Notes: generated from the letters alone by a model not told the origin. 64,000 nt of DNA from an uncultured virus (IMG/VR IMGVR_UViG_2837229570_000001) (IMGVR_UViG_2837229570_000001), one strand, 5' to 3'. Numbered from the stretch's first letter, positions 16,830 to 55,105 are shown. Translations and numbers: made by a program.

Positions 16830-16979
16830 GAGAGTTTTCCCTTTCTTATCCCCTCCGCGACGATGGGTGCCCATGCACTTACTGGCCGCGCCTCTTGACA
16901 GGTTAATTTTCAGAACTGTGCTGCGGAAATATGTTCACATTGTTGGGATAGCGACTATCCCGTAATGAAAGGGGCAAGG

Positions 16980-37020: not shown

Positions 37021-37031
37021 GCTCCGCCTCC

Positions 37032-37268
37032 TTACACATCACGGGGGCAGAAGTGAAACAGGCGGTTTCTGCCACCCGCTTTTTCTTCGGCCTCCGCTTC
37101 TGCCAGCTTCTTGCCCCAGTATTCCATTTCCTCCCGTATCTCTTTGAGGTTCGCCCTCGTCAGCATACGGGTGCCGATTTGGTAGCTCTGCCCGGTTGCC
37201 ACGCTTTCCTCGGCGGCAAGCCAAGTGTTTAACTTCTGCTGGCAAAGCTCCTTTGTGAAAATAGCCAT
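37032..37268 (-). CDS. Head completion protein (gpW/DUF6148-like)
   Basis: GQSYQIGTRMLTRANL. Confidence 0.8.
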   Translation of the reverse strand: MAIFTKELCQQKLNTWLAAEESVATGQSYQIGTRMLTRANLKEIREEMEYWGKKLAEAEAEEKAGGRNRLFHFCPRDV

Positions 37269-39109
37269 TATCCGATTCCTCCGTTCAATCGTCTGCGTCC
37301 CTGCCGCTGCTTGGGCGGGGCGGCGGCTTCCTGTCTCAACTGCACGGGGTTGGCGATTTCAAGGGCCGCCGTGGCGTAATTGCGCAGGTCAAGGGGTTCA
37401 TTTCGCTTGTATTTCTCGTCTTTCAGCACCCACATGGTCGTCATGCGCCCCTTGCGGAATCGCGTCACCAGCTTTTCGCTGGTCAGTCCACGGAAATAAA
37501 GCTCGTCATATCCCGCTTCCTCCGCCGCCGGGAAATGGCAGTAGTTCGGCCCCTTGGTCTTATGGGCAAGCCGCTTGTAAAGCAGCGCCTTGCCCGCGTC
37601 AACGCCGAGGATGAACAGTGGTGCCTTGACCCGGTTGTTGGTGGACGGGTCTCTGATGTATGGAACATCCGCGCCGCCCTTGCCCTTGATGGCAAGCACG
37701 CGCCGGTCATATCGCTCTTTGCAGAACGAGTAAACCGCGTTGGCATGGTGGCCGCCGCTGTCCACGCAGCAGGCCAATATGCGCATGGGCGTACCGTCTT
37801 TTTTGTAGAACGCGCTCAACAAGAAAGCGTCAAGGTCGTTCCACACCTGTTCTTTCAGCAGGTCGCCGTATATCTTCTGATAGCGGATGCCCCAGCTCTC
37901 CTTGCCGATGCCCCAGCCGACCACTTCAACCTCAAAGCGATCATCCTGCACATCGACACCGGCTGTCAGCACCAGCACATCGTCCGGCACTTCCGCCTCA
38001 TAGATTTCCCGCCGCTGGAACAGGTCGCCGTCCTCCAACTGCTCGCCCTGTTCCTCCCATGTCTCGCCCAGCTCCGTGTTGACCCAGACTTTCATGCCCT
38101 CCGGGTTTCCCTGTTCAAGCTGTTCATGGGCAACGGCAAACTTCTGCACGATCTCGTTCCACCCGCAAAAGGTGGAAGCAAGGGTGTTCAGGTGGAAGCC
38201 CCGCGCCTCCGCCGTCGGATTTTCCGCCACGAAGCGCCCGCGTTTGCTGGCTTTCTTCCATGCGTATTCGCTGCTCAAAACGCCGCAGCGCTCGCAGGCG
38301 TATTCCACCGGCGCGGAGAGATCGTCTTTATCGAACTTGACCCCGCCCCACACAAGGGGCTGATAGTGCCCGCACTCTGGGCACGGTACATTCCATTCCT
38401 CCCGCGTGGACTGATTGAACTCTGTTTCAATGCGGCTGTGTCCCTTGATAACCGGGGTGCTGACCATAACGGTTTTCTTGTCCCAAAAGGTCGTCTGCCG
38501 CTTCTGGGCAAGGCTCAAAGGGTCGCCCTCGGTTCCGGCGCTGGTGGGGTATCGGTCTACCTCGTCGGCCAGCAGAACTTTGATCGGGCGGCTGGCAAGG
38601 CCGGTAGCACTGTTTGCGCCTACGATGGTGATGTGCCCGCCGGGGAAATTCTTTTTCAAGATCGTGTTCCCGGAGTATCGGCTTTTGGTATCGACCTTAT
38701 CCCGCAGCTCCGGCGTGTCCCGCAGCATAGGTGCAAGGCGGTCTTTGGAAAAGGTCTGCCCCATGTCCAATGTCGGCTGCATGACCAGCATCGGGGCGGG
38801 GGCGTAATCCATGTAGTAGCCGATGGTGTTCAGGATAAAGGCATCCGTTTTGCCGATCTGCGCAGCGGACATGATAACCACCTTGCGCACATGGGGGTCG
38901 CCGATGGCATCCATGATCTCCCTCTGATACGGGGCTTTGTCTGTGTGCCAGCGTCCCGGCTCCGCGCTGCTCTCCGCCGATAGCATCCTGTATCGGTCTG
39001 CCCACTGGGAAAGCGTCAGCTCCGGCGGCGGTTTCAACACCGCCACACATCGGGCCAGCATTTCCAGCGTGCTTTCCGGGATGTCAACGGTGCTGTTCCG
39101 GCTTGGCAT
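37268..39109 (-). CDS. Terminase large subunit (GpA family)
   Basis: SAQIGKT Walker A, LADEVD, GVDVQD and RNEPLD motifs. Confidence 0.95.
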   Translation of the reverse strand: MPSRNSTVDIPESTLEMLARCVAVLKPPPELTLSQWADRYRMLSAESSAEPGRWHTDKAPYQREIMDAIGDPHVRKVVIMSAAQIGKTDAFILNTIGYYMDYAPAPMLVMQPTLDMGQTFSKDRLAPMLRDTPELRDKVDTKSRYSGNTILKKNFPGGHITIVGANSATGLASRPIKVLLADEVDRYPTSAGTEGDPLSLAQKRQTTFWDKKTVMVSTPVIKGHSRIETEFNQSTREEWNVPCPECGHYQPLVWGGVKFDKDDLSAPVEYACERCGVLSSEYAWKKASKRGRFVAENPTAEARGFHLNTLASTFCGWNEIVQKFAVAHEQLEQGNPEGMKVWVNTELGETWEEQGEQLEDGDLFQRREIYEAEVPDDVLVLTAGVDVQDDRFEVEVVGWGIGKESWGIRYQKIYGDLLKEQVWNDLDAFLLSAFYKKDGTPMRILACCVDSGGHHANAVYSFCKERYDRRVLAIKGKGGADVPYIRDPSTNNRVKAPLFILGVDAGKALLYKRLAHKTKGPNYCHFPAAEEAGYDELYFRGLTSEKLVTRFRKGRMTTMWVLKDEKYKRNEPLDLRNYATAALEIANPVQLRQEAAAPPKQRQGRRRLNGGIG

Positions 39110-39224
39110 GGCCTTTCTCCTTTACGCAGAACGGAAAGAGGCACAGGTATTTCCGATCATCCACTTTCCGCCCCCAGACGCATCCCTTGCACTTGCACTT
39201 GTCTTTCTTCTCATTCTTCGCCAT
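39084..39224 (-). CDS. Small Cys-rich hypothetical protein (not in the ORF track)
   Basis: MAKNEKKDKCKCKGCVWG..CLFPFC; fills the gap between the terminase genes. Confidence 0.4.
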   Translation of the reverse strand: MAKNEKKDKCKCKGCVWGRKVDDRKYLCLFPFCVKEKGHAKPEQHR

Positions 39225-39693
39225 CTCCGTCACCGTCCCTTGCGGCAAAAGCCACGCGGTAATCGCTCAATTCCTCCAACGCCTCGTCGATAGCCTGTTT
39301 CAGCTCGTCAAAAATGGCGGTTTGGTTTCCGCCCATGCTGGCAAGCGTGGGGGAGAGCTTGGCGGGCAGCGCAAGGAAGCGCCCACGGATATTCAAAAAC
39401 ACGGTTTTCAATCCGGCTTCAATGTCCTGCGTGCGGTGCAGCTCGCCCATCCGCAGCTTGTTTTCCATCTCCGCCGCCTCGCGTTTGGCGCGGGTCAGCC
39501 CCGCCCGCTCGTCGTTGAGATTGATCTTCCCGCTGCCATTGCGCAGGAAAGTAATGTATTTCGTCACCGTCGCCTGCAGGTCGTAAAGCCCCGGCTGCTT
39601 TTCGGAGATCACGCCCTCGTCCCGGAGCTGCCGCACCCGGCGCTCGGTCAAACCCAGCCATGCCGCCACGACCTTACTTGTGTATAGCTTCAT
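39211..39693 (-). CDS. Terminase small subunit (Nu1-like)
   Basis: A.WLGLT.RRVRQL..EG.I HTH; ERA.L.RAKRE.AE. Confidence 0.85.
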   Translation of the reverse strand: MKLYTSKVVAAWLGLTERRVRQLRDEGVISEKQPGLYDLQATVTKYITFLRNGSGKINLNDERAGLTRAKREAAEMENKLRMGELHRTQDIEAGLKTVFLNIRGRFLALPAKLSPTLASMGGNQTAIFDELKQAIDEALEELSDYRVAFAARDGDGDGEE

Positions 39694-40460
39694 TCCGCGT
39701 CAACCTCCACGCCCTCGTCCGTTTCATCCTCCGGGCCTCCCACATCGAACGCGCCGGTGGCCCTCATGCGCATAATGTCGAGGCGTTCCCGCTCCAACGC
39801 CATGCGCTTTTCGCTCTCTTCCAGCGCACGCAGGCTGTCGGCAATCTTGGTAATGCGCCCCTGCACCTTGTAAAGCGCCTCCTGCAGTTTCATGCTTCTT
39901 GCAAAGGCGCTGTCCTTGGTATACATGCCCATGTTCTGATTTGCGCCGTCCTGCTTCTTATCGCCGCGCCCGCCGGGCACGCGCATATCAAGCAGGCTGC
40001 TGATGTGCAGGGTGTCCTCCGGCTCCGCCTCATACTGGGCGATCTTCTCCAATATGCGGTGCTCCCGCACCTTGGCGATTTTCAACTCATGTTCCAGTGC
40101 TTCCTTGCTCCCGGTGGGCGTAAGCTGTACGATCTCCCTCTCCGAATCGGTGAGCATATCAAAAAAGATGGTGCTGTAAGCTCCATCCTTTTCCGCGTTC
40201 TTATTCCCCAGCGGCGCGCCCTCATGGCTGCCCGCCGCGTTTTTATGACCGGCGCTGTTCTTGTTGCCCGGCTGCCCGCCCCGCTTTTTCTTCGGTAGGT
40301 CGGCATCCCATTTGTCAGCCGCTTTCCAATTCCGCAAGGTCTGATAGGTCACGCCCAGCGCATCGGCCAGCTCGCGCAGGTTCACTTTCTCGCCCCGCGC
40401 CTTTCGGGCGATGTAATCAGCCTTGGCGGTGTCGCGCTTCTCGCTCCGCTTCGGCATCAT
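39690..40460 (-). CDS. Terminase-small-subunit-related HTH protein
   Basis: LRELA..LGV..TLRNWK..DKW, GGQPGNKN and GNKNAEK motifs. Confidence 0.75.
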   Translation of the reverse strand: MMPKRSEKRDTAKADYIARKARGEKVNLRELADALGVTYQTLRNWKAADKWDADLPKKKRGGQPGNKNSAGHKNAAGSHEGAPLGNKNAEKDGAYSTIFFDMLTDSEREIVQLTPTGSKEALEHELKIAKVREHRILEKIAQYEAEPEDTLHISSLLDMRVPGGRGDKKQDGANQNMGMYTKDSAFARSMKLQEALYKVQGRITKIADSLRALEESEKRMALERERLDIMRMRATGAFDVGGPEDETDEGVEVDAE

Positions 40461-41199
40461 CACACCCCCAAAATAGACGGCGCACCCCACTTGGCCTACC
40501 TGAATACCCCGCGTAGGGACGCAAGGCTTCGGCCAAAACAGGGCGCACCAATAACAAAGCCCGCAGCGTTTTAAGCTGTGGGCCTGTTCTTCACGCTATG
40601 AATATATCATGGAAAACCTGTCAAAGTTGCCAACTCTCAAAAATTTTTCTTGCCCTCCCGCCGCCGCGTCACTTTTTACTTGACCGCCTCCCGGCGCAAG
40701 CGCCCTCAAAACACCGTAAGCCCTTGCGGCTGCTGCATTTCTTTACTTGCCTGCAATTTGCCGCCCCCAGCAAAATGGTTTTCGATGTTTTGTCGATCTC
40801 ACCATTTCGTTGACCTCGCCAAAATGGCGAAGCGCCGCGCCCGCTGGTTCCGCTTCGGTGCCCTCATGCCCCCGGTGGTGCCCATTGATTTGCCCCTCCC
40901 GCGTTTTTTGAACCCCCTCCTATTTTCCGCCGCCCCGCCGGGGAAGCCCTAAAAAAATGTTCACACCTACAAAACTTTTGCGCTTCTGAACCCGTAAGGC
41001 ATCGCGCGGGCGCGCGCAGTACCTACGCGCGTGCGCAGGTATAAAATCGCGCGCGTTTATATATCGCGTGGGCGTTTGAAAGTCGCGGGCGGGTGCGGCG
41101 GGCGGTCATTGCTTCGGCGGTGTGCCGGTGGTGGGCTGCTGCTGGTGCTGCTGGTGCTGGTGTTTGTGCCGGTGCTGGCGGTTGTGCCGGTGGTGCTGC

Positions 41200-41468
41200 T
41201 GGTGCCGGTGGTGATCGTCGGCGCGGCTGCCGGTGGTGAGGCTGCCGGGCGGGGCTGGTGATCTGCTGGCTGCCGGTGGTGCCGGTGATCGTCGGCGCGG
41301 CTGCCGTTGGTGAGGCCGTCGGGCGGGGCTGGTGATCCGCTGGCTGCCGGTGGTGCCGGTGATCGTCGGCGCGGCTGCCGTTGGTGAGGCCGTCGGGCGG
41401 GGCTGGTGATCCGCTGGCTGCCGGTGGTGCCGGTGATCGTCGGCGCGGCTGCCGGTGGTGAGGCCGTC
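41200..41468. repeat. Non-coding 74-bp GC-rich tandem repeat (~3.5 copies)
   Basis: GATCGTCGGCGCGGCTGCC at 41213, 41287, 41361 and 41435. Confidence 0.9.
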
Positions 41469-41675
41469 TGGCGGGGCCGCCAGTGTCGCCGGGGAAGTAT
41501 TTACCGCGCGCGGTATCGTCTCCCGAAAGGCTATATAATACGCCCCCTATACCCCCCAGCACAGCGTTTTAACAGAAATTCACCACGGGAAAAGCAACGC
41601 CCCAGCGGAGCCGCCGAAAAATTTTTCCCCCTACGGGGGAACATCCCCGCCCCGAAAAAAATTTCAAAAAAACGC

Positions 41676-41735
41676 TTGACATTTACACGGCACCGTGTTA
41701 CATTCATGGCACAGCAAGCGACACGGCACCGTGTC
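41676..41735 (+). promoter_or_regulatory. Strong sigma-A promoter with two ACACGGCACCGTGT operators
   Basis: A-rich UP element, TTGACA-17-TACATT with extended TG. Palindromes at 41685-41698 and 41720-41735. Confidence 0.8.
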
Positions 41736-41771
41736 AAACGAAAAACGAAAAATCATCAGGAGGTTTTCACC

Positions 41772-42185
41772 ATGACGAACAACGAGATTATTTTTGAGAC
41801 TGTCCGCAGCAGCTTCACCCCCGCCCAGCTCGCCGATCTGGTCAACGCGACTTTCACCGCTGACCAGCTCAACGCCCGCCGCGCTGGCGTAAAGATCACC
41901 GTCGCCGAGGGCAGCGACGAAACCCCGGAAAGCGTGTTTAACGCCATGCTGGCCGCCGAGACTTTCCACACTTTCGCCGAGTGGAAGCGCATGGGGTACA
42001 GCGTGAAAAAGGGACAGCACGCCGCGCTTGTGTGCAATCTCTGGAAGTACACCGACAAGCCCGGCAAGGCCGCCCGCGAGGCCGCCGCCGCTGCTGGCGA
42101 GGATGCCCCGGAAAGCGACCCGCATTTTTACATGGCAAAGGCGCATCTTTTCCACGCCTTGCAGGTGGATAAGATCAGCAAGTGA
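41772..42185 (+). CDS. ArdC-like N-terminal (ssDNA-binding) domain protein
   Basis: HTFAEWKRMGYSVKKGQHA....LWK..LF...QV; AGGAGG RBS. Confidence 0.7.
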   Translation: MTNNEIIFETVRSSFTPAQLADLVNATFTADQLNARRAGVKITVAEGSDETPESVFNAMLAAETFHTFAEWKRMGYSVKKGQHAALVCNLWKYTDKPGKAAREAAAAAGEDAPESDPHFYMAKAHLFHALQVDKISK

Positions 42186-42195
42186 CCCCAGCGAC

Positions 42196-42242
42196 GCGGA
42201 CACTTTAGCAGGGCTGCACCGCACAAAGCAACCCCGCCCCAG
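42196..42242 (+). ncRNA. Motif A copy 1 (unassigned structured element, candidate ribozyme)
   Basis: Three intergenic copies with a compensatory change. Confidence 0.6.
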
Positions 42243-42286
42243 CCCATCGGGCATGAATCAAAATCAAACTTTGGAGGTTTTCAATT

Positions 42287-43216
42287 ATGGCAAAGCAAAA
42301 TTATTATGGCAGCTTCAACCCCAGCGCCGCCGCAAAGGCTCTGAAAATGGCCGACCGCTATTTCTGCCAGATCACCGAGGACGGCACAATTTACGCCGGT
42401 TCCGGCTATGTGCTTTTCAAGCTGACCCCCCACGACTACGCCGCCATTGTTCAGCCCGTCGCCTGCTGCGAGGCTGGCAACTGGACGATTGACCGCAACG
42501 GCAAGAGCGAAAGCAACATTGACGCGGCGCGCATCTTCTCCGAGGCCGTCAAGACCGCACAGAACGCCGCCGATCTGCAGTCCTGCCCGCTGGTTATCAA
42601 CTGCAAGAAAGACAAAAACCCCGCCGCCGCCTACTACAACGCCGAGGCCGATTTTGTAGCCCTTTACAATCCCGCATATCTCGCCGCTTTCCCCGGCGCG
42701 GCCATCCGCGCAAGCTCCGCTTGCAGCCCCGCGATCATGTATAACGGCGGGGAGGCCGTCGGGCTGGTAATGCCTATCCGCGCCGAACCCAAAGCCGCCC
42801 GCGCCGTTAAGGCATACTTTACCGAGGCCGACGACGACAACGACAACAACGCCGAGGCCGAGAAGCTGCGCGGCCAGTTGGCCGCCCGGAACGCCGAGCT
42901 GCTGGAAGCCCGCGACAAGATCAAAGCCCTGCGCGGTGAGATCAACGACCTGCAAGCGGAGGTTTGCGAGCTGTCCACCGTCAGCGCCGAGGCCGTGCCC
43001 GCCGCCGACAACAAGCCGGAACCCAAAACCGCCGCCGAGATCATCGCGGCGCGCTGGGCAGAGGTTGACGGCCTGACCGCAACTATCAAGGGCGCGCAGA
43101 CCGCCGCGCCGGTGGTGTGGCTTGCCGGTGACACAAAACCCCATGCAAAAGCCATCGAGGCCGACGGCGGCAAGTGGAGCGCCAAAAAGAACGCCTATTA
43201 TTTCCGCGTCGCCTGA
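42287..43216 (+). CDS. Hypothetical multidomain protein
   Basis: 309 aa; GLVMP.R, coiled coil, WL.GDTKPH..G.KWS.KK.A.Y. Confidence 0.7.
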   Translation: MAKQNYYGSFNPSAAAKALKMADRYFCQITEDGTIYAGSGYVLFKLTPHDYAAIVQPVACCEAGNWTIDRNGKSESNIDAARIFSEAVKTAQNAADLQSCPLVINCKKDKNPAAAYYNAEADFVALYNPAYLAAFPGAAIRASSACSPAIMYNGGEAVGLVMPIRAEPKAARAVKAYFTEADDDNDNNAEAEKLRGQLAARNAELLEARDKIKALRGEINDLQAEVCELSTVSAEAVPAADNKPEPKTAAEIIAARWAEVDGLTATIKGAQTAAPVVWLAGDTKPHAKAIEADGGKWSAKKNAYYFRVA

Positions 43217-43220
43217 CACA

Positions 43221-43293
43221 ACCCGCAAGGCCGACGGCATCCGCCGCCGCTGGTGCAAGCCCAGCCGCCCCACCGGGGCGGGCGCTCATGGGT
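43221..43293 (+). ncRNA. Twister-sister self-cleaving ribozyme, copy 1
   Basis: ACCCGCAAGGCCGACGGCATCCGCCGCCGCTGGTGCAAGCCCAGCC-hairpin-GGGCGCTCATGGGT matches, from memory, the four-way-junction twister-sister ribozyme. Confidence 0.85.
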
Positions 43294-43329
43294 CACAATC
43301 CAAACCAAAAAAACAGGAGGTAAAACACT

Positions 43330-43929
43330 ATGATGCTTGAAGAATTTGAAAGCCGTACCGGCTTTTATCCCACCCGCGACCTTTACAGCCGAATTGAAGC
43401 GGCTTACATGGAAAGCGGACTTGACAAAGACAGCTTTTGCGCCGCGTACAAAGAAAACCGCGACGGCATAGCGGAGGCAATCGCACGGGATGCCGCTTTT
43501 GATGAAATCAAGGCCGCCACCCAGCGAGAAAGCGAAATCAAGAAGCTGCAAGAGCAGGTCGCCCAGCTTACAAAACAGCTTGATCGGGAACTCGAATGGA
43601 AGCCCTACGAACTGTCGCAGAATGTGCCGCAAGCAGATTATGCAAAGCTTGCCGCCGGTGCCGAAAGCGGGCTATGCGCTCACTACATGACCGACGAGGA
43701 AGCAATCAAATGGATTTGTGACGAGTTTGATTTTGACCCGGCAAAGATCACGATCATTCACGAAGTCCCGGAATACGAAATCAACCGTCACAACCAGCTC
43801 CGCAAAACTGGGAAAATGTACGACTGCCGCCCGGTTTACTGTGCTACCGATTATCACTACATCCGCTTCAACACAAAGCGCTGGTTCTATGAGGTCTGGA
43901 ACGGCCAGCTCCGCCCGTTCTACGCATAA
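43330..43929 (+). CDS. Hypothetical protein
   Basis: 199 aa; MMLEEFE.RTG..Y..IE..YM....DKD.FC; AGGAGG RBS. Confidence 0.7.
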   Translation: MMLEEFESRTGFYPTRDLYSRIEAAYMESGLDKDSFCAAYKENRDGIAEAIARDAAFDEIKAATQRESEIKKLQEQVAQLTKQLDRELEWKPYELSQNVPQADYAKLAAGAESGLCAHYMTDEEAIKWICDEFDFDPAKITIIHEVPEYEINRHNQLRKTGKMYDCRPVYCATDYHYIRFNTKRWFYEVWNGQLRPFYA

Positions 43930-43935
43930 CCCACA

Positions 43936-44009
43936 ACCCGCAAGGCCGACGGCATCCGCCGCCGCTGGTGCAAGCCCAGCCGCCCCCGCCGGGGCGGGCG
44001 CTCATGGGT
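43936..44009 (+). ncRNA. Twister-sister self-cleaving ribozyme, copy 2
   Basis: Identical to copy 1 except for the loop of the last hairpin. Confidence 0.85.
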
Positions 44010-44044
44010 CACAACCCAAAACCACAAAACAGGAGGTTTTCATC

Positions 44045-44488
44045 ATGGCAGCAACAACACGCCCCATCCCCGGCATCTTCTCCAAGGTTCCCGGCGGCTA
44101 CGCACAGCAGATCAACGAGCAGACAACGCTTTTTGTCCCGGATATGTGCGCCGCCAGTTTTAACCCCGACACCGGCGATCTTCGCGGCTACGCTCCCGAC
44201 TATGAAGCGCTGGAAGCTGCAAAGGCTCCCGCCGTCCACGCTGACAAACCCGGCGAATATTCCTATTGCTACGAAATGCAAAAGGCTCCAACGGGCTGCG
44301 ACTTCGCCGCCGATCTCTCCTATTACGGCAAGCACTACTTTCTCCGGCCACTCCGCGACGATCTCCCGCAGCTCCACGGGCGCGGCATCAGCTACGATGA
44401 AAAGCGTAACACCTATACGGTCACGCTCCGCGCCTATGAGAAGCTCAAAGAGCAATACCGCATCCGATACGAAACCTGCCTTGATTGA
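44045..44488 (+). CDS. Hypothetical protein
   Basis: 147 aa from MAATTRPIPG; AGGAGG RBS. Confidence 0.7.
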   Translation: MAATTRPIPGIFSKVPGGYAQQINEQTTLFVPDMCAASFNPDTGDLRGYAPDYEALEAAKAPAVHADKPGEYSYCYEMQKAPTGCDFAADLSYYGKHYFLRPLRDDLPQLHGRGISYDEKRNTYTVTLRAYEKLKEQYRIRYETCLD

Positions 44489-44495
44489 CCCCCAC

Positions 44496-44544
44496 CCGGA
44501 CACTTTCGCGGGGCTGCACCGGCACACAAAGCAACCCCACCCCA
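44496..44544 (+). ncRNA. Motif A copy 2
   Basis: CCGGACACTTTCGCGGGGCTGCACCGG..AAAGCAACCCC. Confidence 0.6.
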
Positions 44545-44589
44545 TAAGCAAAACCCAAAACCCAAAAATCCAAAACGGAGGTACACAAA

Positions 44590-45504
44590 ATGTCTGTTAC
44601 TTACTACCCGATCAACGAGGACACCGCCCGCAACGCGCATTACATGGTACACATGAGCGACTACAAGCCCGGCAGCGCCACGGCCGGCTACCGCGCCGCC
44701 GTGGACGAGGCCGCCGCGCTGGTGGAGGCGCAGAAAGCCAAGGTCAGCCCCTACTATCACGACAAGCTGGACGGCCTGCTTGACCGCTACGCCCGCCGCC
44801 TTGCCGAGTGGACGAACGACTACAACCGCAATCAGGCCAGCTATCCCAGCCAGTTTATTTCCGGGGCGGGCGGCTTCAATATGCGCAAGCACAACAAGCA
44901 GATGGCGCGGGAAGATACCCTCTGGAAAGAGTACGACGAGATCAAAGCCCTGCTGCACAAGATGGAAAGTGTCGGCACCGGCCCGGTCGATCTGGCAGAC
45001 CCCCACGCCCGTGAAATCCTCACCGACCAGCTCCAAAAGCTCCAAGCCCGGCTTGACCGCAACAAGGCTATGAACGCCTATTATCGCAAGCACAAATCCT
45101 TTGCCGGTTTCCCGGAGCTGACCGACGAGGCCGCCGCCCGGCTCGATGCACAATTTGCCGAAACCCGGCAGCAGTGCCCGTGGATTGACAAGCCGTGCCC
45201 CGACTATGAATTGACCAGCCTGCGCGGCAAGATTAAGCGCGTGGAAGAACGCATTGCGGAGCTGGACAAACGCGCCCAGCAGGCGGAGCAGCCCGCCGAC
45301 AACACAGCTTTCCCCGGCGGCGAGATCGTCCGCAATCTGGAAGCCGACCGGCTGCAGATCATCTTCGACGAAAAGCCCGACGAGGACACCCGCGCCGCCC
45401 TGAAACAAAACGGCTTCCGCTGGTCGCCCCGGTACGGCGCATGGCAGCGCCAGTTGACCCAAAACGCAGAATCCGCCGCCCGCCGCGCTCTTGGCCTGAA
45501 ATAA
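44590..45504 (+). CDS. DUF3560-like/polyvalent-type protein
   Basis: PS..ISGAG.F..RK; N.EADRLQIIFD.KPD..R..LK.NGFRWSP..AWQRQLT. Confidence 0.65.
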   Translation: MSVTYYPINEDTARNAHYMVHMSDYKPGSATAGYRAAVDEAAALVEAQKAKVSPYYHDKLDGLLDRYARRLAEWTNDYNRNQASYPSQFISGAGGFNMRKHNKQMAREDTLWKEYDEIKALLHKMESVGTGPVDLADPHAREILTDQLQKLQARLDRNKAMNAYYRKHKSFAGFPELTDEAAARLDAQFAETRQQCPWIDKPCPDYELTSLRGKIKRVEERIAELDKRAQQAEQPADNTAFPGGEIVRNLEADRLQIIFDEKPDEDTRAALKQNGFRWSPRYGAWQRQLTQNAESAARRALGLK

Positions 45505-45548
45505 TCAAAAGCCCGCCCCGGAGGTAACGAGGGCAGAAAGGACATAAA

Positions 45549-45743
45549 ATGTGTCTTACACAGCAGAACGCCGCCCAGTTTGTCGGCAAGTCCCTGTTTG
45601 GCGGGCACTTCCATTATTGGCCTCTGCGTGTCATTCAACACAAAAACGGCCTGTATTACTACATTGACCGTTTCGGCGTTATGATGAAATGCCCAGACCA
45701 AAACGACCTTTTCAACGCGGTTTATTTCAGCCGAGCCGAATAA
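45549..45743 (+). CDS. Small hypothetical protein
   Basis: 64 aa; AAAGGA RBS. Confidence 0.55.
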   Translation: MCLTQQNAAQFVGKSLFGGHFHYWPLRVIQHKNGLYYYIDRFGVMMKCPDQNDLFNAVYFSRAE

Positions 45744-45781
45744 CCGCCGCAACCATTTTCGTGACCTCACGAAAAAGATAC

Positions 45782-45828
45782 CCGGACACTTTCGCAGGGC
45801 TGCACCGGCCAAAGCAACCCCGCCCCAG
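45782..45828 (+). ncRNA. Motif A copy 3
   Basis: CCGGACACTTTCGCAGGGCTGCACCGGCCAAAGCAACCCCGCCCC. Confidence 0.6.
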
Positions 45829-45871
45829 AAGCAAAAACCCAAGAACATAACACAAAACGGAGGTACAAACC

Positions 45872-46108
45872 ATGTTCACCGTTCCCGCAGGCACCCCGCT
45901 CTACACAAAAGAGCATGACGGCACCGTACAGCGCTGGTATCTGTTCGGCTGGTACGGCGATACCTTTTCCGTCGCGCCTCGCAAAAACGCCAAGCTGCGC
46001 GACTACAAGCGCTATTATTCCGCCGCCGACATCGGCCAGACTATCTACAAGACCCGCAAAGAGGCCGCCGCCGCGCCCTGTCCCGCCACAGTCTACCAGC
46101 CCCGCTAA
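45872..46108 (+). CDS. Small hypothetical protein
   Basis: 78 aa; GGAGG RBS. Confidence 0.6.
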   Translation: MFTVPAGTPLYTKEHDGTVQRWYLFGWYGDTFSVAPRKNAKLRDYKRYYSAADIGQTIYKTRKEAAAAPCPATVYQPR

Positions 46109-46116
46109 ATCTATCA

Positions 46117-46145
46117 TAGACAGTAACACGACATCGTGTTATAAT
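46117..46145 (+). promoter_or_regulatory. Sigma-A promoter with an AACACGACATCGTGTT operator in its spacer
   Basis: TAGACA-17-TATAAT; palindrome at 46125-46140. Confidence 0.8.
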
Positions 46146-46167
46146 TCATGCACAACGGAGGGATTGC

Positions 46168-46431
46168 ATGGAACACAAATCGCAAGAAGTTTTTCCCGCT
46201 TTTCGCCTCGTCGCCCAGTTCGCCGACGGCCAGCGGCTTCTTTTTGACGGCCTGACGGAGCAGCAAGCCCGGCAGGCCATGGAGGCAGCGCAAACCCAGC
46301 ACGGCGACATTACATGGTGGGACGGCGTGACCGATCAACATTACGAAAATGGCCGCTATTTCGCAACACTGCCCCCGCCGCCAGAGATCACCATGTACGA
46401 TCTGACGGATTATCCCAACAAGGAGGAATGA
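46168..46431 (+). CDS. Small hypothetical protein
   Basis: 87 aa; GGAGG RBS. Confidence 0.6.
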   Translation: MEHKSQEVFPAFRLVAQFADGQRLLFDGLTEQQARQAMEAAQTQHGDITWWDGVTDQHYENGRYFATLPPPPEITMYDLTDYPNKEE

Positions 46432-46434
46432 CCC

Positions 46435-46653
46435 ATGCCCATAGCCGCATCCAAACGCCGCAACAACGATATTTACAACGCCAAGTGTGACCGCATCAGC
46501 GCCCGCCCCTTAAAGCCCGTCGGCAACGCCATCCGCGCCGCCGCGCAGGCCGCCGGGCAGAGCGTGCAGGCGTATGTGCTGCAAGCCTGTGAAGAACGCA
46601 TGACCCGTGAAGGCCGCCCCTTGGAACTGGACAAACCGCCCGATGAAACATGA
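46435..46653 (+). CDS. Ribbon-helix-helix (Arc-like) regulator
   Basis: YNAK.DRIS.R......IRAAA..AGQSV.AYV..A..ERM. Confidence 0.7.
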   Translation: MPIAASKRRNNDIYNAKCDRISARPLKPVGNAIRAAAQAAGQSVQAYVLQACEERMTREGRPLELDKPPDET

Positions 46654-46668
46654 CCCCCGCCGCGCGCA

Positions 46669-46712
46669 AAAACACCCCCGGTAGGCTCTCGACCAGCCCG
46701 CCGGGGGTGTTC
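46669..46712. terminator. Terminator between convergent operons
   Basis: AACACCCCCGG..GGCT / AGCC..CCGGGGGTGTT. Confidence 0.7.
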
Positions 46713-46921
46713 TATTATCCGCGTATTCGCAAATTGTTTTTCCAGCGGCTTTTTGAGCCTGCGGAAACAGCTTCGCGTCGCGCGGTTTGCAATTCTCTTA
46801 ATTTCTGTTTTTGGAACAGTTTTTGACAGTGCTTTTCCCGCCCGCCGGGCGCAGATCATCCCGGCGCGCGGTGCCGGAGGCAATGAGCTTCAAGACCAGC
46901 AGAAAATGACCCGATATACAA

Positions 46922-47404
46922 CTAAACGCGCGCGCGCGTCGCGCGGCCCAAAATCTCGCCGGTTTCCCCCGCATCTTCCAGCGCTTTTCCGAACCGAATC
47001 AGCGCCTTGCTGTCCCAGTGGCGCACAGTGCTGTCCGGCGCGCCGATACGGGCGGAAATTCCGCCCCAACTGTACCCATTGAGATAGCGCATGGTGAGGA
47101 TGTTCTTGTACCTACCGTTCACAGCGTCAAGGGCACTCTGAATGTGCCGCTGGTCGTCCTCCAAAACCTGCACCCGGTTTTCGATCTCCCGGATGCGGTC
47201 AGAGGCCCCGCTTTCCGCAAGTCTGACCACCGCGCTTTCAACCGGGCTGCCCGGCGATGTGCCGTGGGGCATCCCGTCCATGGAGATACCATGCAGGCCG
47301 CAGTATTCGTCCTCCAGCTCCCGGCGCTCCTGCTGCAAAAGCCGCTTCATTTCCGGGATGCTGCGGTAGTACATGATGATCGTTTTCGCGTCTTTCCGCT
47401 GCAT
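46922..47404 (-). CDS. ArpU/RinA-like late transcriptional activator
   Basis: DGMPHG..P.E; IL.MRYL.G.SW..I sigma-4-like HTH; last early gene. Confidence 0.75.
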   Translation of the reverse strand: MQRKDAKTIIMYYRSIPEMKRLLQQERRELEDEYCGLHGISMDGMPHGTSPGSPVESAVVRLAESGASDRIREIENRVQVLEDDQRHIQSALDAVNGRYKNILTMRYLNGYSWGGISARIGAPDSTVRHWDSKALIRFGKALEDAGETGEILGRATRARV

Positions 47405-47426
47405 AATGCTCGCCTCCGTTCCTCTG

Positions 47427-48083
47427 TCAGTCCAGAGTGTCACCAAAGACCGGCGTATCTGCTCCCGCCGTGTCCACATTGCAAGGGCTGTGCATGATCT
47501 GCCCCATTTCCCGTGCCAAAAGCTCATAGCCGTAGTAATCGCCGCTGTCCGCCCACTCACGGAACTGCTGGTAGTTGCCCACGGCCTCCTGCATGACGCA
47601 GGCCACCCGCTCGGCACCAAATCCCAGCGCCTTGTTCATGCCGTAGGCATACAGCTTCGCAACGGTGGCCGCCGCCGCGCGCTGTTCATAGGCCATCGCC
47701 ACATCCCGCTTCTTGGGCAGCTTGTGGATGGGCAGAATGAAGTCTGCCGGGAAGTATGCCGCCGTGTCGGCGGTCAAATCCAGCTCGGCCAGCTCCGGCC
47801 CAGTTTTCTTTTTCCCGTCCACAAGGCGCGGCAAGCCCTCTTTGGTCTGCTGGTAGCGCTCCGCCCGCTCGTTGGCAGCATCCGCCACCCGCTGCAGGCG
47901 CGTTTCTCCAATGCCGTACTTGTCATAGATCGCCGACAGTATGCACATCACAAAGACATCCGCCGTAGCCTTGCGGGCATCGTTTACCCGCTCGCTCTGC
48001 GTCTTTTTCTCCCGCAGAAAGCGCCGTTCCGCCTGTCTGACGGCGTTGTGTCCCCAATATGCAGGTTTACCCTTGTGCTTCAT
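47427..48083 (-). CDS. Hypothetical phage protein
   Basis: 218 aa with duplicated YGIGE.RL / LGFGAERV motif. Confidence 0.6.
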   Translation of the reverse strand: MKHKGKPAYWGHNAVRQAERRFLREKKTQSERVNDARKATADVFVMCILSAIYDKYGIGETRLQRVADAANERAERYQQTKEGLPRLVDGKKKTGPELAELDLTADTAAYFPADFILPIHKLPKKRDVAMAYEQRAAAATVAKLYAYGMNKALGFGAERVACVMQEAVGNYQQFREWADSGDYYGYELLAREMGQIMHSPCNVDTAGADTPVFGDTLD

Positions 48084-48288
48084 TTTCCGCCTCCTGACAG
48101 CCTACCAGCGCCCCGCAGAGGGGGCAGGCGTTGACGCACAGAACATTCAGCCCGCCGCCGGTGGTGGTGCTGTCCATGCACAGGCGCGGTTTGCCGTCCT
48201 CGCCCCACTCCATCCAGAAATCCATGTTGTCCGTGGTGTGCATCTTCTGGTGCCGCTCGCACAGCGGGCACAGTTTTTTTCTTTGCAT
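48067..48288 (-). CDS. Small Zn-finger protein
   Basis: CPLC..CPLCG. Confidence 0.5.
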   Translation of the reverse strand: MQRKKLCPLCERHQKMHTTDNMDFWMEWGEDGKPRLCMDSTTTGGGLNVLCVNACPLCGALVGCQEAENEAQG

Positions 48289-48292
48289 AAAA

Positions 48293-48778
48293 TCACTCCT
48301 TTGCCAGCTTCCGCCACTGGGCATCTTCTTCCTTGCTGTCTGCGGTGATGATTTCCCGGAACTTCCAGCCCAGCGGGCGTACCTGCTCCAAGAAAATCCG
48401 CCGCCGGATATGGTAATCCCGCTGCATCCGCCGGACGAACTTGCTTTTGACCTCCACGATCTCCACGGTGCCGTCGGCATACTCCAAGCGGAAATCCGCC
48501 GTGTAGCGAATGGCGCGCAGTTTTATCCCGTCATACTCGCCCTCCGGGAACAGCACAAAGCGCGGGTGCTGCTCGCATTTCACGATCTCACCCGTTGCCA
48601 TTTTGGGCGCAATGGTGCCTATGTAAAATTCATACTCGCCCCGGCTGTCAAACTCCCGCCCGGTGGCCTTTGCGGCTTTCGCGGCAGCAGAGAGGGAGTT
48701 TCCCGCTCCTTTCGCCCGCCGGGCAAGCTGCTTTTCCGCCTGCGCCCGTGCCCAAGGCGGCAGATCGGACAATTCCAT
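48293..48778 (-). CDS. DUF1064 PD-(D/E)xK nuclease
   Basis: FDSRGE..Y, IRYTADF.L and EIVEVK motifs. Confidence 0.75.
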   Translation of the reverse strand: MELSDLPPWARAQAEKQLARRAKGAGNSLSAAAKAAKATGREFDSRGEYEFYIGTIAPKMATGEIVKCEQHPRFVLFPEGEYDGIKLRAIRYTADFRLEYADGTVEIVEVKSKFVRRMQRDYHIRRRIFLEQVRPLGWKFREIITADSKEEDAQWRKLAKE

Positions 48779-48780
48779 TC

Positions 48781-49653
48781 TCAACGGTTCATCCTCCCAT
48801 TCTTCCGTCCCCGATACGCGCCGTCGGCGGCGGTTTTGAACTCTGCCCGGCGCAAGATCACCAGCGTATGCCGGTGCCCGGTGTTGCTGACCTTTGTTTC
48901 CACCCGGTTCAGGGTGTAGCCCGGATATTTCCGCTCCCAAAATTCCCGGTCGTCGATGTATAGGGTGCTGGCTTCTTCCAGCTTTTTTCGGCTCCACTTG
49001 CTGTCGTTAGGGGGCGGTGTCTTTGGCTTTTCAAGCCCTCGGCTCTGCCTCCACCGGCGGGCGCAGCGCTTGTTCTTGTTGATGTACTGCACAAGCCCCT
49101 CCACGCTGCCGTGGTCGAAATGCAGCCGCTCGCACCGGCAAAGCCCCATCGTTTTTCCGGCGGTGTCTCGCCACAATTCTTCCAGCGTGTCCCGGCTCAA
49201 TCCGTCGGTGTGCTGAATGATGGCGTGGTGGTGGTGGCGGCCGTAGGTAGCCCCCGTTTCGTCGGTGGTGGTGTATTCCGTCGCCATCAGCCACAACGGG
49301 CGCTCAACTCCGTGCTTGTCACACCAGCGGTAGACCCGCCTCATGTATGCCGTCCAGTCCCGATCTACCCGCTCGGTGTCTCCCGGCGCAGGCAGATGGT
49401 CGTCGTCATAGGTGGCCGTCAGAGCATAGTCCTGTTCGGTGAAGTTGGCGTTGACAAGCTGGACGCAATAGCGCTTTGCCCGGTTGTCGTTGTAGGTCTG
49501 CATGGCAAGGGAAGTGGCTTCCTTGCGCTTCGCCCTCCGGCTCGCCCGGTGTTTCTTCGCTGACACAGCATAGAGATCAACTTCCATGTAAGGGGCGGTG
49601 TCGTAGTCTTTCCCGCAGATATGTTTTTGTTCCCGGTAATATATCGCAGACAC
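48781..49653 (-). CDS. HUH-type replication initiator-like protein
   Basis: LVNANF..LTATY, ATE..GRHHHHAII, EELW..G, LVQYINK and RRW.QSRGL motifs. Confidence 0.65.
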   Translation of the reverse strand: MSAIYYREQKHICGKDYDTAPYMEVDLYAVSAKKHRASRRAKRKEATSLAMQTYNDNRAKRYCVQLVNANFTEQDYALTATYDDDHLPAPGDTERVDRDWTAYMRRVYRWCDKHGVERPLWLMATEYTTTDETGATYGRHHHHAIIQHTDGLSRDTLEELWRDTAGKTMGLCRCERLHFDHGSVEGLVQYINKNKRCARRWRQSRGLEKPKTPPPNDSKWSRKKLEEASTLYIDDREFWERKYPGYTLNRVETKVSNTGHRHTLVILRRAEFKTAADGAYRGRKNGRMNR

Positions 49654-49964
49654 AGCTTTACGCCCCTTTCGCGAGATTGCGTTCACCTATGCGGGGGCGT
49701 TGCCCCCGTATTTTGTTATCACGGAGGAATACCCCCCCATTGCTCCGCAGGCAAGGGAGGACAACGCCGGGCGGGGCGTTTCCGCTCTGCATCTGGCCGT
49801 GCAGCATGGCCCCGCCCTCTGTTTTCCCCCCTTGGCCCCTCTTTCCCCGGCTCTGTGGTTCTAAAGTTAAGCACGATATACAAGCCCCATGCGGCCCGCA
49901 GGCCGCATAAGATTTCCGCCGCCGGGGTGGGGTTTTTCATTTTCCGCACCGGCGGCGGGGAGCT

Positions 49965-50192
49965 TCACACATTGATGTACCTGTTCTGGCAGTTCACATT
50001 GTTGCAAAACCGCTCTGTTCCGATCACGCGCAGCGGTTGCCCGCAGAATTGGCAGAAGTTGCCAGCCTGCCGGGGCGGAGCATCGTCCGCGTGCGTGCCG
50101 CCGTATCTCATGCGGTTTATCAGGCACACCACTGACCCCGGCTGCGCCGCCGCGATGCAATGCTCTTTCGCCTTGCAGTTGTAGCACTCCAT
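49965..50192 (-). CDS. Cys-rich Zn-finger protein
   Basis: CxxC motifs. Confidence 0.5.
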   Translation of the reverse strand: MECYNCKAKEHCIAAAQPGSVVCLINRMRYGGTHADDAPPRQAGNFCQFCGQPLRVIGTERFCNNVNCQNRYINV

Positions 50193-50196
50193 GCCG

Positions 50197-50712
50197 TTAC
50201 TCCTTGTCTTTTCTGTTCTCGCAGCCGCCGGGCTGGCACTTGATGCACGGCAGATCGGTCGCGCCGCACACCGTGCCCGCTTCCTTTTCGGCTTCCAGCC
50301 GGTCAGCCAGCCGGGACAGCTTGATACTCTCCCAGTCGGAACAGTCCCCGAAGATCACATGGAGCTGGTTCAACATGATTTCCACATCGGCGCGTTCCTC
50401 GTTGATGGATTCCAGCACCGCCGGGCGTTTGCCGTAACGAATGAATTTCAGCAGGGCCTTGGTCAGCTCCGCCATTTCTTCAACGGCGATAAGGATTTGT
50501 GCGTTGGCACCATAGGTTTGCACAGCCGCCTCATAGAGCGCCATTTCCTGCTGCGCTGCCGTCATGGCTTCATCCGCCGCCGCGAGCTGGGCTTTCAGCG
50601 CCTCCACGCCCATGCGGCAAGCCTCGGTGACTTCTTCCAAACCGCCCTCGCGCTCGTAGTACAGTTCGCGGTGTTCGGGGTTAAGAATTTCAATCGCTCT
50701 CTGAATATCCAT
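50197..50712 (-). CDS. MazG-like NTP pyrophosphohydrolase
   Basis: AVEEMAELTKALLK..INEERADVEIML. Confidence 0.7.
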   Translation of the reverse strand: MDIQRAIEILNPEHRELYYEREGGLEEVTEACRMGVEALKAQLAAADEAMTAAQQEMALYEAAVQTYGANAQILIAVEEMAELTKALLKFIRYGKRPAVLESINEERADVEIMLNQLHVIFGDCSDWESIKLSRLADRLEAEKEAGTVCGATDLPCIKCQPGGCENRKDKE

Positions 50713-51541
50713 TGTGTTCCTCCTTATGTGGCAGCATTTTTGCTGTCGCTTCCACAAAAAATTCCTTTGATCGCTCAAAGCCATAGGCGTTTCGCCCGCA
50801 CTCATAAGCAGCGCGCAAGGTCGAACCACTACCAGCCACTGGGTCGATCACGACATCGCCGGGGTCTGTGAAAATCTCAATCAGTTTTTTCAGCAGCCCA
50901 ACCGGCTTTTGCGTGGGATGAATTTTGGGGTACTCTTTTCCGTCCCGCTCCCACGGGAACCAGTTAAATACCATGTGACCAGTCCCGCGAATGATCTTTC
51001 CTTTATCGTCCCTCTGCGCGCCATTGCGAAACTTTGGCAGCTTGTCCCGATAAAGCACCACCGCGAACTCTGTTGCTCCCACGATACGCATATTGGCTTT
51101 CAGGACTTGCGCGGAATAGTTTTTGCAGAAGAACAGAGGGTAGGAATTTTTGAATCCATACTGTTTCCCGTATTCTGTTACAGTCTGCATCTGCTCATAG
51201 GCACAGAATACGATCATGGCCGGTGCTGTTCCGGGCGCTTTCGGCTCTTTTTTCAACAGGCGGTTGCAAAAGTGCATATACTCTGCGATTTTGAATTGCC
51301 CATCACCGTCAAAGAAAGCCGATTTTGCCAATTTGCTTTCCCCGTTCCTGTTGTCGCCGCCGTTATACCACATCGGATTGCTCCCATAAGCATCGGCTCC
51401 GATGTTGTACGGAATATCAGCAATCACAAGCTGGGCTTTGGGAATGTTATATCTCTTGAAATTCTGGAAATTATCGTGGTACAGCTCGACCTTTATCTCT
51501 TTGCGCTTGCCCTCGATGTGATCTGCCAGCTCATTCCCCAT
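50690..51541 (-). CDS. N4/N6 DNA methyltransferase (beta class)
   Basis: IADIPYN, HPTQKPV and VIDPVAGSGST motifs. Confidence 0.88.
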   Translation of the reverse strand: MGNELADHIEGKRKEIKVELYHDNFQNFKRYNIPKAQLVIADIPYNIGADAYGSNPMWYNGGDNRNGESKLAKSAFFDGDGQFKIAEYMHFCNRLLKKEPKAPGTAPAMIVFCAYEQMQTVTEYGKQYGFKNSYPLFFCKNYSAQVLKANMRIVGATEFAVVLYRDKLPKFRNGAQRDDKGKIIRGTGHMVFNWFPWERDGKEYPKIHPTQKPVGLLKKLIEIFTDPGDVVIDPVAGSGSTLRAAYECGRNAYGFERSKEFFVEATAKMLPHKEEHNGYSESD

Positions 51542-52196
51542 CGGCCATATCCTCCATTTCGACCTGTTCCGGCTCCGCTTCGCCCTCTGCGATCTCCGCC
51601 GCCTCTCCCGCTTCCGCCCGCGCACGCTGGCGGAAAAGCTGCTCGGCGCAAAGTGCCTCAAATTCCTGAAGCTCTGCAAGGAATTTCTCGCTGATAATCT
51701 GCAATGGAAGAATGACTGCCAAGATGCTGAATCCATCCTTGACGGCAATATACCGCGTCCCGCTCGGCAGGCGGCGCACCGTCATTTCCAGATAGTCGCT
51801 ATCTTTCAGCACATCGGACAGCGGGGCAAGATAGTTGTCGTCATAAAAGATCAGCTCGCCGTCGTTGGTGCGCAGGGCGGATGCATATATACCTTTGACT
51901 GCCGCCACCATGGCGACCGGCTTTGTGGCCTGTTCGCCGGGGTCGTAGTCCCGCAGGTTATAACCGATCACATCCCGCGTTTCTTCGCAGTCATATTCCC
52001 GCAGATAAACCTTGTCCATCTGCTTATCGTCAAGGCTCAAAATGGCTCGCGTCTGCTCTCGTCCGCTGAACTCCGGCAGCTCACCGGCGCGATATATCGC
52101 CCCTTTGCAGCCCAGCCATACACCGTCGTTATGTACCCGGAACACACTGCAAAGGCCCTCCCGCCGCACCAGCGCGGCATACTTTGATAGCTTCAT
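51531..52196 (-). CDS. Hypothetical phage protein
   Basis: 221 aa; GGAGG RBS. Confidence 0.6.
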   Translation of the reverse strand: MKLSKYAALVRREGLCSVFRVHNDGVWLGCKGAIYRAGELPEFSGREQTRAILSLDDKQMDKVYLREYDCEETRDVIGYNLRDYDPGEQATKPVAMVAAVKGIYASALRTNDGELIFYDDNYLAPLSDVLKDSDYLEMTVRRLPSGTRYIAVKDGFSILAVILPLQIISEKFLAELQEFEALCAEQLFRQRARAEAGEAAEIAEGEAEPEQVEMEDMADGE

Positions 52197-52509
52197 CGTG
52201 CGCCCTCCTTATCCCATCAGGAACAGCCAGCACAGCTTAATGATCGCCGCAGGGGCGATGATTGCCGCCGCCGACCACAGCGCGGCACCCACCACCAACA
52301 GCGCACCAAACAACAGCGCCAACGCCTCGTTGTTCTCGTTCTTCATAAAGGCTCTACCTCCGCCGGGTATTCCTTGTCCTGATCGTCCCGCTCGGCATCC
52401 TCCCGGACATGGTTCAGAAAGGTTTCCGTCTGCCGCAGGCAGAACGCTTCTTCACCCTCGGCCTGCAGTTCCAAGCCGAAATAGCGCATCGTGATCTTTG
52501 CCATGGCTG

Positions 52510-53049: not shown

Positions 53050-53060
53050 GGTGTTTCCTC

Positions 53061-53716: not shown

Positions 53717-53749
53717 AGCTTCGCCTCCTGATTATTTGAAACCGGCAAA

Positions 53750-55103: not shown

Positions 55104-55105
55104 GA

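Follow-up and report, generated by a model that had tools for sequence, protein, structure and literature searches.

The twister-sister ribozyme (Rfam family RF02681) is a proven self-cleaving RNA, whereas self-cleavage is not proven for RAGATH-5 (RF02685), an RNA motif of gut phages that carries the Rfam type label 'Gene; ribozyme' and is associated with twister/hammerhead-type ribozymes and phage-like genes. Its discovery was owed to this proximity to self-cleaving ribozymes. A passage of a 2024 paper describes the functions of the remaining RAGATH motifs as unknown (PMC11061315). Our literature search found no paper naming RAGATH-5 and no report of its activity; the 2015 discovery paper lay outside the search, and the term 'RAGATH' is absent from the main text of the 2017 follow-up paper. 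Here we analyzed a stretch of 64,000 nucleotides (nt) of DNA from an uncultured virus (IMG/VR IMGVR_UViG_2837229570_000001; the whole stretch is called the window below), in which three copies of RAGATH-5 share an operon with two twister-sister ribozymes. The comparison of these copies with their relatives points to a pseudoknot with base triples, and to a job shared with the twister-sister ribozyme.

We searched the window with the consensus SCGGACACTTTMGCRGGGCTGCACCGS, which matched exactly three sites, at 42196, 44496 and 45782, all on the + strand, against a chance expectation of 0.00 matches from 100 shuffles. Allowing up to two mismatches added no site in the window. In every copy, AAAGCAACCCC was reached 2 to 5 bases beyond SCGGACACTTTMGCRGGGCTGCACCGS. 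The three positions given by an earlier sequence-only reading of this DNA were thereby confirmed. That reading had described the motif as either new or one of the uncharacterised RAGATH-type motifs. All three copies aligned with RF02685 over model positions 1 to 53 of 53, and since all three exceed its curated gathering score of 50 bits (64.1, 54.3 and 59.9 bits for copies 1 to 3), the elements are members of the known family RAGATH-5 and not a new RNA class. The RAGATH half of the earlier description thus stood, and its novelty fell to the Rfam search, which had been named beforehand as the refuting test and which found a catalogued family. The model alignments contained the family's 5' CGGAYAC, the GGGC.GC / GC..CCC stem, the ACCG...AAA loop and the 3' CCCCA, and the surroundings also agree with the association of the family, with two twister-sister ribozymes within 1.8 kilobases (kb) and prophage genes around. 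A scan of the whole window at curated Rfam thresholds gave seven matches (RAGATH-5 three times, twister-sister twice, DUF3800-VIII and tmRNA), and a permissive scan (E ≤ 1) of 36000-56000 added no further family at the three sites. The twister-sister model did not match at 42196, 44496 or 45782, even at E ≤ 1. Across the 3.22-megabase genome, RAGATH-5 is represented by these three copies only.

Each copy lies in a gap between genes. Copy 1 begins 10 nt past a TGA (42183-42185), copy 2 begins 7 nt past a TGA (44486-44488), and copy 3 begins 38 nt past a TAA (45741-45743). A G/U-poor linker, a GGAGG and an ATG follow in every case, the ATG being 45 to 46 nt beyond motif position 46 (at 42287, 44590 and 45872). 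The twister-sister ribozymes here start 1 to 3 nt beyond stop codons and are followed by the same succession of G/U-poor linker, GGAGG and ATG. The claim that each copy occupies the slot of the twister-sister ribozymes in this operon, after a stop codon and ahead of an A/C-rich linker and a ribosome-binding site (RBS), was therefore borne out. No terminator-like site was found on the + strand between 41.4 and 46 kb, so a single long transcript of the operon fits. The unusually long 38-nt gap before copy 3 holds a 9-base-pair inverted repeat, UUUUCGUGA-CC-UCACGAAAA (45756-45775, + strand), which is not present before copies 1 and 2. A small hairpin, GCCC-ATC-GGGC, is located at 42242-42252, just beyond the core of copy 1. 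The two twister-sister ribozymes are near-identical and lie on either side of the gene at 43330-43929.

The slot argument was strengthened by orthologous genes in other phages. There were 38 viral loci encoding relatives of the 44590-45504 protein, and 20 of the 38 were scanned with Rfam. RAGATH-5 above threshold was located directly upstream of the gene in six of these 20 (L481, L483, L485, L487, L489 and L498), and a twister-sister ribozyme in two (L495 and L496; their proteins share 62% identity with the query). The other 12 loci had no above-threshold element; six of them carried a RAGATH-5-like variant with a compensated stem, and six carried no element. At L495, a twister-sister ribozyme fills all three slots covered by sequence, and L498 has two RAGATH-5 elements and one twister-sister ribozyme. 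Since each replaces the other upstream of orthologous genes, these data argue for interchange of the two RNAs and for a job that they share. Should the cutting of RNA be that job, phages would treat catalytic and nuclease-recruiting RNAs as interchangeable. The variant, in which pairs 16-39 and 17-38 are flipped (CCG...CGG for GGG...CCC), occurs in L467-L488, L497 and L499, at about 557-602 in each, and lies upstream of the primase-like gene in 20 of the 36 loci with upstream sequence. The current Rfam model misses this flipped-stem branch, as most of its scanned members score below the gathering score.

Relatives were pooled from several searches into an alignment of 128 rows (127 distinct sequences) in the numbering of the Rfam model. 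The pattern used on viral contigs covered positions 16-39 only and found at least 170 stretches. Although neither triplet was in this pattern, 184 of the 187 viral matches with enough flank have GGA at the expected upstream distance and 184 of 187 have CCA at 44-46, both counted among the matches listed. All 20 of these pattern-matched viral loci that were sent to Rfam carry RAGATH-5 above threshold. Matches in a genome collection were mostly due to chance, in high-GC genomes, with GGA in register in 14 of 125; the genuine ones belong to records titled Oscillibacter, Faecalibacterium, Clostridiales and Oscillospiraceae. Of 150 further genomes from the family to which the window belongs, one has the motif, in four copies within 2.5 kb, and none of 14 control genomes has it. 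This patchy spread is the pattern of a phage-borne element. The position between genes is retained in the relatives: among 171 distinct contexts, a stop codon ending an open frame lies 1 to 17 nt upstream of position 1 in 159, most often at 6 to 8 nt (93 contexts), and an RBS with a start codon lies 30 to 69 nt beyond position 46 in 165. In the 160 contexts with a stop codon found, it is TGA in 109, TAA in 51 and TAG in none, often with a C next.

The alignment indicates that the RNA probably folds as an H-type pseudoknot, with a hairpin formed by 13-22 and 33-42 and a second helix between positions 1-4 and the loop bases 24-27. RNAalifold recovered the hairpin core (16-18/37-39 and 20-22/33-35) unaided, and the hairpin covaries at 20-35 (CG 65, UA 56, UG 2, other 4), 16-39, 17-38 and 13-42. 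In five rows, CG replaces GC at both 16-39 and 17-38, and these flipped pairs are the reason why the five score below the Rfam threshold. The outer pairs 1-27, 2-26, 3-25 and 4-24 were paired in 94.7% of cases over the 127 distinct relatives. Two-sided changes were observed at 2-26 (CG 120, UG 4, GC 3) and at 1-27 (CG 33, GC 31, AU 1, UA 1, GU 1, UG 1, other 25, with the 34 short-loop rows being gaps), and 3-25 and 4-24 were invariant GC. The relatives thus uphold the covariation noticed earlier among the three copies (GCGG/CCGC in copy 1, CCGG/CCGG in copies 2 and 3), and they support the outer helix as a putative pseudoknot that links the 5' end to the loop of the hairpin. The columns invariant in the 128 sequences are G3, G4, A5, G18, G21, C22, A23, C24, C25, A30-32, G33, C34, C37, C44, C45 and A46. 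The loop bases AAA (30-32) probably pack on the short helix in a minor-groove role; AAA was required by several of the search patterns, and the invariance of 30-32 is tested only by the rows from one search.

The double-pseudoknot fold proposed by the sequence-only reading was retained in part. Its outer helix a (1-4/24-27) and its GGG/CCC pairing are supported in the relatives, the latter as a portion of the main hairpin (helix d) rather than as a separate helix. The CUUU/AAAG and GCA/UGC helices are complementary in the three copies, yet neither was supported as conserved structure. Helix b (CUUU/AAAG, 8-11/30-33) had 72% of its cells paired in the relatives and showed no covariation: 9-32 was paired in 61, 10-31 in 79 and 11-30 in 99 of 127 sequences, AAAG was invariant, and there were zero two-sided changes. 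Positions 9-11 switch freely between U and C while AAAG stays constant, with the caveat that AAA was fixed in several search patterns. Helix c (GCA/UGC, 13-15/20-22) had 78% of its cells paired; 13-22 and 14-21 vary one-sidedly, 15-20 was paired in 65 of 104 rows, and the helix competes with the covarying pair 20-35.

The first loop showed a different relation to the hairpin. Position 9 matched position 35 in 126 of 127 sequences (CG 65, UA 59, UG 2, other 1), and position 10 matched position 36 in all 127 (UA 79, CG 48, no U.G). The score of this parallel register was reached in 0 of 500 shuffles, and sliding the partner by 1 to 3 columns left 2 to 74% of cells paired. All four combinations at 9,10|35,36 were found within single sub-family backgrounds, and two sequences form a minimal pair, differing solely at 9, 10, 35 and 36 with the same 19-20; the alignment holds no two sequences for which 9 or 10 is the sole difference. 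In 72 of 121 sequences, C at 19 faces A36, and U at 19 faces G36 only; position 10 therefore follows purine 36, whatever base 19 is, and not the Watson-Crick partner of that purine, as expected of a Hoogsteen contact. Likewise, position 9 tracks 35 better than it tracks 20. In H-type pseudoknots, the first loop spans the deep groove of stem 2, parallel to the 3' strand of that stem. Because U with A and C with G, in parallel and nearly free of wobble, is the signature of major-groove triples, we infer that loop 5-12 runs along the hairpin's major groove and that bases 9 and 10 form U.A-U / C+.G-C type triples with 35 and 36. A pseudoknot with two such triples would allow precise compensatory mutants and predicts sensitivity to pH.

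Our proposal, to which we give about an even chance, is that RAGATH-5 acts as an RNA-processing signal between cistrons, in place of a self-cleaving ribozyme. The polycistronic transcript would be cut at or beside the motif, and a compact structure would then head each downstream cistron, ahead of an unstructured linker and the cistron's own RBS. The RNA may cut itself, in a setting still to be reproduced, or its fold and CCA tail may be recognised by a nuclease of host or phage that makes the cut. RNase P minihelix substrates have a helix closed by a G-C pair and then NCCA. We lean to a trans-acting nuclease, because the near-invariant CCA after G13-C42 (a pair present in 86 of 121 sequences) has no role in the fold and resembles the NCCA end of RNase P substrates. 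This near-invariance of the CCA in itself suggests a specific trans-acting partner. More tentatively, the triplex-stabilised pseudoknot with its tRNA-like G-C/NCCA end could turn polycistronic phage mRNA into a substrate of a cellular tRNA-processing nuclease such as RNase P, or else be itself a new self-cleaving class with a triple-helix core. If either were true, the motif would solve, for a second time and with an unrelated structure, the task that the twister-sister ribozyme performs in sister phages, and would offer a direct handle on why phages cut operon transcripts between genes. The finding of the elements itself is ordinary, since any Rfam scan labels the sites; the additions are the pseudoknot-triplex model, the equivalence of the slots and a caveat about the strand. 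No cleavage, RNA end or transcript boundary was seen in the sequencing data, which comprised eighteen runs, none containing half of the query words and all of them assembled contigs, which cannot show RNA ends. Contigs span copy 1 in four of four runs (X3, X6 and X7 from one pig-gut RNA study; X1 probably DNA), which has no bearing on cleavage, and contigs, with the same limit, also span the proven twister-sister ribozymes.

Several observations weigh against this proposal. The sample of relatives is redundant, consisting of related phages, and was partly gathered with patterns that fix many positions. The element is dispensable, as six of the 20 scanned orthologous loci have no RNA element in the slot. 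The triples have a competitor in an antiparallel 10-36/11-35 pairing, which is also 99.6% paired but needs 40 U.G pairs; we consider it less likely, because 9-35 holds 0.90 bits against 0.23, and because two isolated pairs make no helix. As for the lean to RNase P, U does not occur at position 12, which precedes G13 (A 61, G 30, C 7 and gap 23 in 121 sequences), and a tRNA-like gene was sought with ARAGORN in 40000-52000 and none was found. The sense hairpin reached -9.8 to -11 kcal/mol with a z of +0.2 to +1.0, no better than shuffled sequences, and the complementary strand reached -19.3 to -20.4 kcal/mol with a z of -0.55 to -1.7. In the relatives, standard pairs filled 84.0% of the hairpin cells on the sense strand versus 96.2% on the complement, and pairing alone thus does not settle the strand. 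Finally, a passage of a review reports that further structures found by the RAGATH screen 'did not cleave in experiments' and that their functions are unknown, RAGATH-5 not being named there; it adds that some motifs of the screen may be ribozymes that were inactive under the conditions used (PMC6765202). A passage of another paper likewise reports that many predicted candidates did not cleave (PMC8782182).

These reports bear most directly on the view that RAGATH-5 is a true self-cleaving ribozyme with a pseudoknot-triplex catalytic core, whose activity was missed for lack of suitable conditions or flanks, for example low pH (for C+ triples and A+.C pairs), co-transcriptional folding or a cofactor. 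Together with the lack of any paper naming RAGATH-5 in our search, they make this view unlikely to us, even though the RNA shares the slot of the twister-sister ribozyme and interchanges with it upstream of orthologues, has near-invariant unpaired bases (A5, C8, A23 and A30-32) and an apparently compact tertiary fold, and is typed by Rfam as a ribozyme. Alternatively, the element might not be cleaved and might instead be a mechanical or insulating one, blocking a 5'-to-3' exonuclease or stray ribosomes, or shielding the next RBS from upstream pairing. H-type pseudoknots with triplexes are classic mechanical blocks, as in frameshift pseudoknots and nuclease-resistant RNAs. A stop codon at the most frequent distance of 6 to 8 nt would place the fold at the leading edge of the terminating ribosome, and the G/U-poor linker comes next. 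However, this spacing may merely reflect compact intergenic design, as the twister-sister ribozymes start even closer to their stop codons, and an insulator leaves both the invariant CCA tail and the proven cleaving ribozymes as alternative occupants of the slot unexplained. We regard an insulating role as quite unlikely.

The strand data raise the alternative that the complementary strand is functional, as an antisense RNA or a DNA hairpin, and that the sense reading is a by-product. The complement folds better by about 10 kcal/mol and pairs more completely, and the common A.C and C.A oppositions of the sense strand at 15-40 and 19-36 become G.U on it. Against this, the orientation of the motif relative to the flanking genes is fixed, and the other RNA that fills this slot is a ribozyme on the sense strand. 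The tracking of 36 by 10 and of 35 by 9 would be predicted by a sense major-groove triple and not by a minor-groove loop on the complement, judging from H-type geometry. In addition, the setting is a tailed double-stranded DNA prophage and not a conjugative element, and no convincing antisense promoter is present nearby. We kept the sense strand because of the fixed orientation, the sense-strand ribozyme in the same slot and the triples, which work on this strand only, and consider function of the complement improbable. The copies could also serve mainly as homologous stretches at which recombination reshuffles the intervening small genes. Contigs of relatives join 42252 to 45854, that is, between RAGATH-5 copies 1 and 3, and join 43216 to 43932 and 43272 to 43989 between the twister-sister ribozymes, skipping the gene at 43330-43929. 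These joints between like elements suggest shuffling of the gene cassettes that lie between motifs, but their support is weak: two of the three are short-flanked (21 letters) or of low depth and the third comes from a single contig, so that they may be assembly artefacts. Recombination between any repeats is expected without selection, and a boundary repeat leaves the pairing-preserving compensatory changes unexplained; the covariation already speaks for a folded nucleic acid. A role as cassette boundary is very improbable as the main function, and we retain the processing signal as our preferred reading.

The coordinates of the elements, their parts and the neighbouring genes are given in Table 1.

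Table 1. Positions of the RAGATH-5 copies, their structural parts and their neighbours in the window.
Feature	Position	Strand	Partner or detail	Evidence
RAGATH-5 copy 1	42196-42248	+	core 42196-42241 (46 nt); model position n = 42195+n	RF02685, 64.1 bits; pattern match
RAGATH-5 copy 2	44496-44551	+	core 44496-44544 (49 nt); hairpin loop 3 nt longer	RF02685, 54.3 bits; pattern match
RAGATH-5 copy 3	45782-45834	+	core 45782-45827 (46 nt)	RF02685, 59.9 bits; pattern match
Putative pseudoknot strand S1a (positions 1-4, GCGG), copy 1	42196-42199	+	with 42219-42222	covariation in relatives
S1a pairing, copy 2	44496-44499	+	with 44519-44522	same element
S1a pairing, copy 3	45782-45785	+	with 45805-45808	same element
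Loop-1 pyrimidines 9, 10 (UU), copy 1	42204-42205	+	over A35, A36 (42230-42231)	putative third-strand bases
Loop-1 pyrimidines, copy 2	44504-44505	+	over 44533-44534	putative
Loop-1 pyrimidines, copy 3	45790-45791	+	over 45816-45817	putative
Hairpin 5' strand S2a (positions 13-22), copy 1	42208-42217	+	with 42228-42237 (33-42)	Rfam structure, RNAalifold, covariation
AAA (positions 30-32), copy 1	42225-42227	+	end of hairpin loop; pseudoknot loop 3	columns invariant in alignment
3' tail CCCA (positions 43-46), copy 1	42238-42241	+	after closing pair G13-C42	CCA in 184 of 187 viral matches, among the matches listed
3' tail CCCA, copy 2	44541-44544	+		same
3' tail CCCA, copy 3	45824-45827	+		same
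Linker and GGAGG, copy 1	42249-42286	+	ATG at 42287	read from sequence
A/C-rich linker, copy 2	44552-44589	+		read from sequence
A/C-rich linker, copy 3	45835-45871	+		read from sequence
Twister-sister ribozyme 1	43218-43298	+		RF02681, 83.7 bits (gathering score 34)
Twister-sister ribozyme 2	43933-44014	+		RF02681, 86.5 bits
Gene upstream of copy 1	41406-42185	+	weakly ArdC-N / anti-restriction-like	phrog_34979 (1.7e-29); phrog_7245 (anti-restriction, 1.6e-4)
Gene downstream of copy 2	44590-45504	+	labelled primase in PHROG	phrog_19458 (1.5e-113); no Pfam family

The window is a tailed prophage, and its early operon, on the + strand and divergent from the structural genes, carries the RAGATH-5 copies on the coding strand. 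Pfam searches of the window identified a large terminase (gpA ATPase and nuclease domains), a lambda-type portal, a Clp-type protease, a tape-measure protein, baseplate J, a P2-I tail protein, a tail lysozyme, two ArdA-like proteins and a large serine recombinase beside tmRNA. A reading as a conjugative element or single-stranded DNA was rejected on this gene content. In the PHROG and Pfam searches, the operon products were mostly without assigned function: Pfam ArdcN matched the 41406-42185 product with 20 bits, under the cut-off of 22.6, and the 44045-44488 product had no match in the protein-family searches. The last 22 bases of the serine recombinase gene (60945-62537, + strand) overlap the 3' end of the tmRNA gene (62516-62871, - strand), which looks like integration of the prophage at ssrA. 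Elsewhere in the window, a DUF3800-VIII RNA motif (40481-40547, - strand; 61.6 bits, gathering score 40.2), to which no function is assigned, adjoins and slightly overlaps the start of a small-terminase-like gene (39690-40490, - strand). A protein with a reverse-transcriptase domain (15699-16874, - strand) lies amid tail and baseplate genes and may belong to a diversity-generating retroelement. An anti-restriction-type cluster (7948-10268 and 381-2588, both on the - strand) encodes two ArdA-domain proteins, a DUF3849 protein and a D12-class adenine methyltransferase.

Structural comparisons with known systems place the three copies closest to RAGATH-5 as catalogued in Rfam, with full-length matches, the same 5' CGGAYAC, hairpin and CCCCA tail, and the same phage-borne and ribozyme-rich context. 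However, the structure line of the covariance model shows the hairpin alone; the pseudoknot and the 9/10-35/36 contacts are absent there, and may be drawn in the original description. In topology, with a 5' strand pairing with a hairpin loop, the putative fold resembles the pseudoknot of telomerase RNA and the SAM-II and preQ1-II riboswitches. As in these H-type pseudoknots, the first loop of RAGATH-5 is pyrimidine-rich and covaries in parallel with the 3' purines of stem 2, and the last loop is A-rich, whereas there is no sequence relationship and no Rfam match to those families. Unlike the riboswitches, RAGATH-5 has no evident ligand or expression platform, and the RBS, about 31 nt past the core, is not sequestered; a riboswitch reading was rejected, as neither a terminator nor RBS sequestration follows the motif. 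Compared to an RNase P minihelix substrate, the RAGATH-5 hairpin is also closed by a G-C pair (G13-C42), followed by C43 and CCA, and a long, quasi-continuous helix would result if the pseudoknot stacked on the hairpin. It differs in lacking a T-loop and in having a stem of 10 layers plus the pseudoknot rather than 12 pairs. With the twister-sister ribozyme, finally, RAGATH-5 has no sequence or structure match at the three sites, and its core is shorter (about 46 nt versus about 81 nt), whereas both occupy the same slot of the same operon here and, in other phages, precede orthologues of one and the same gene.

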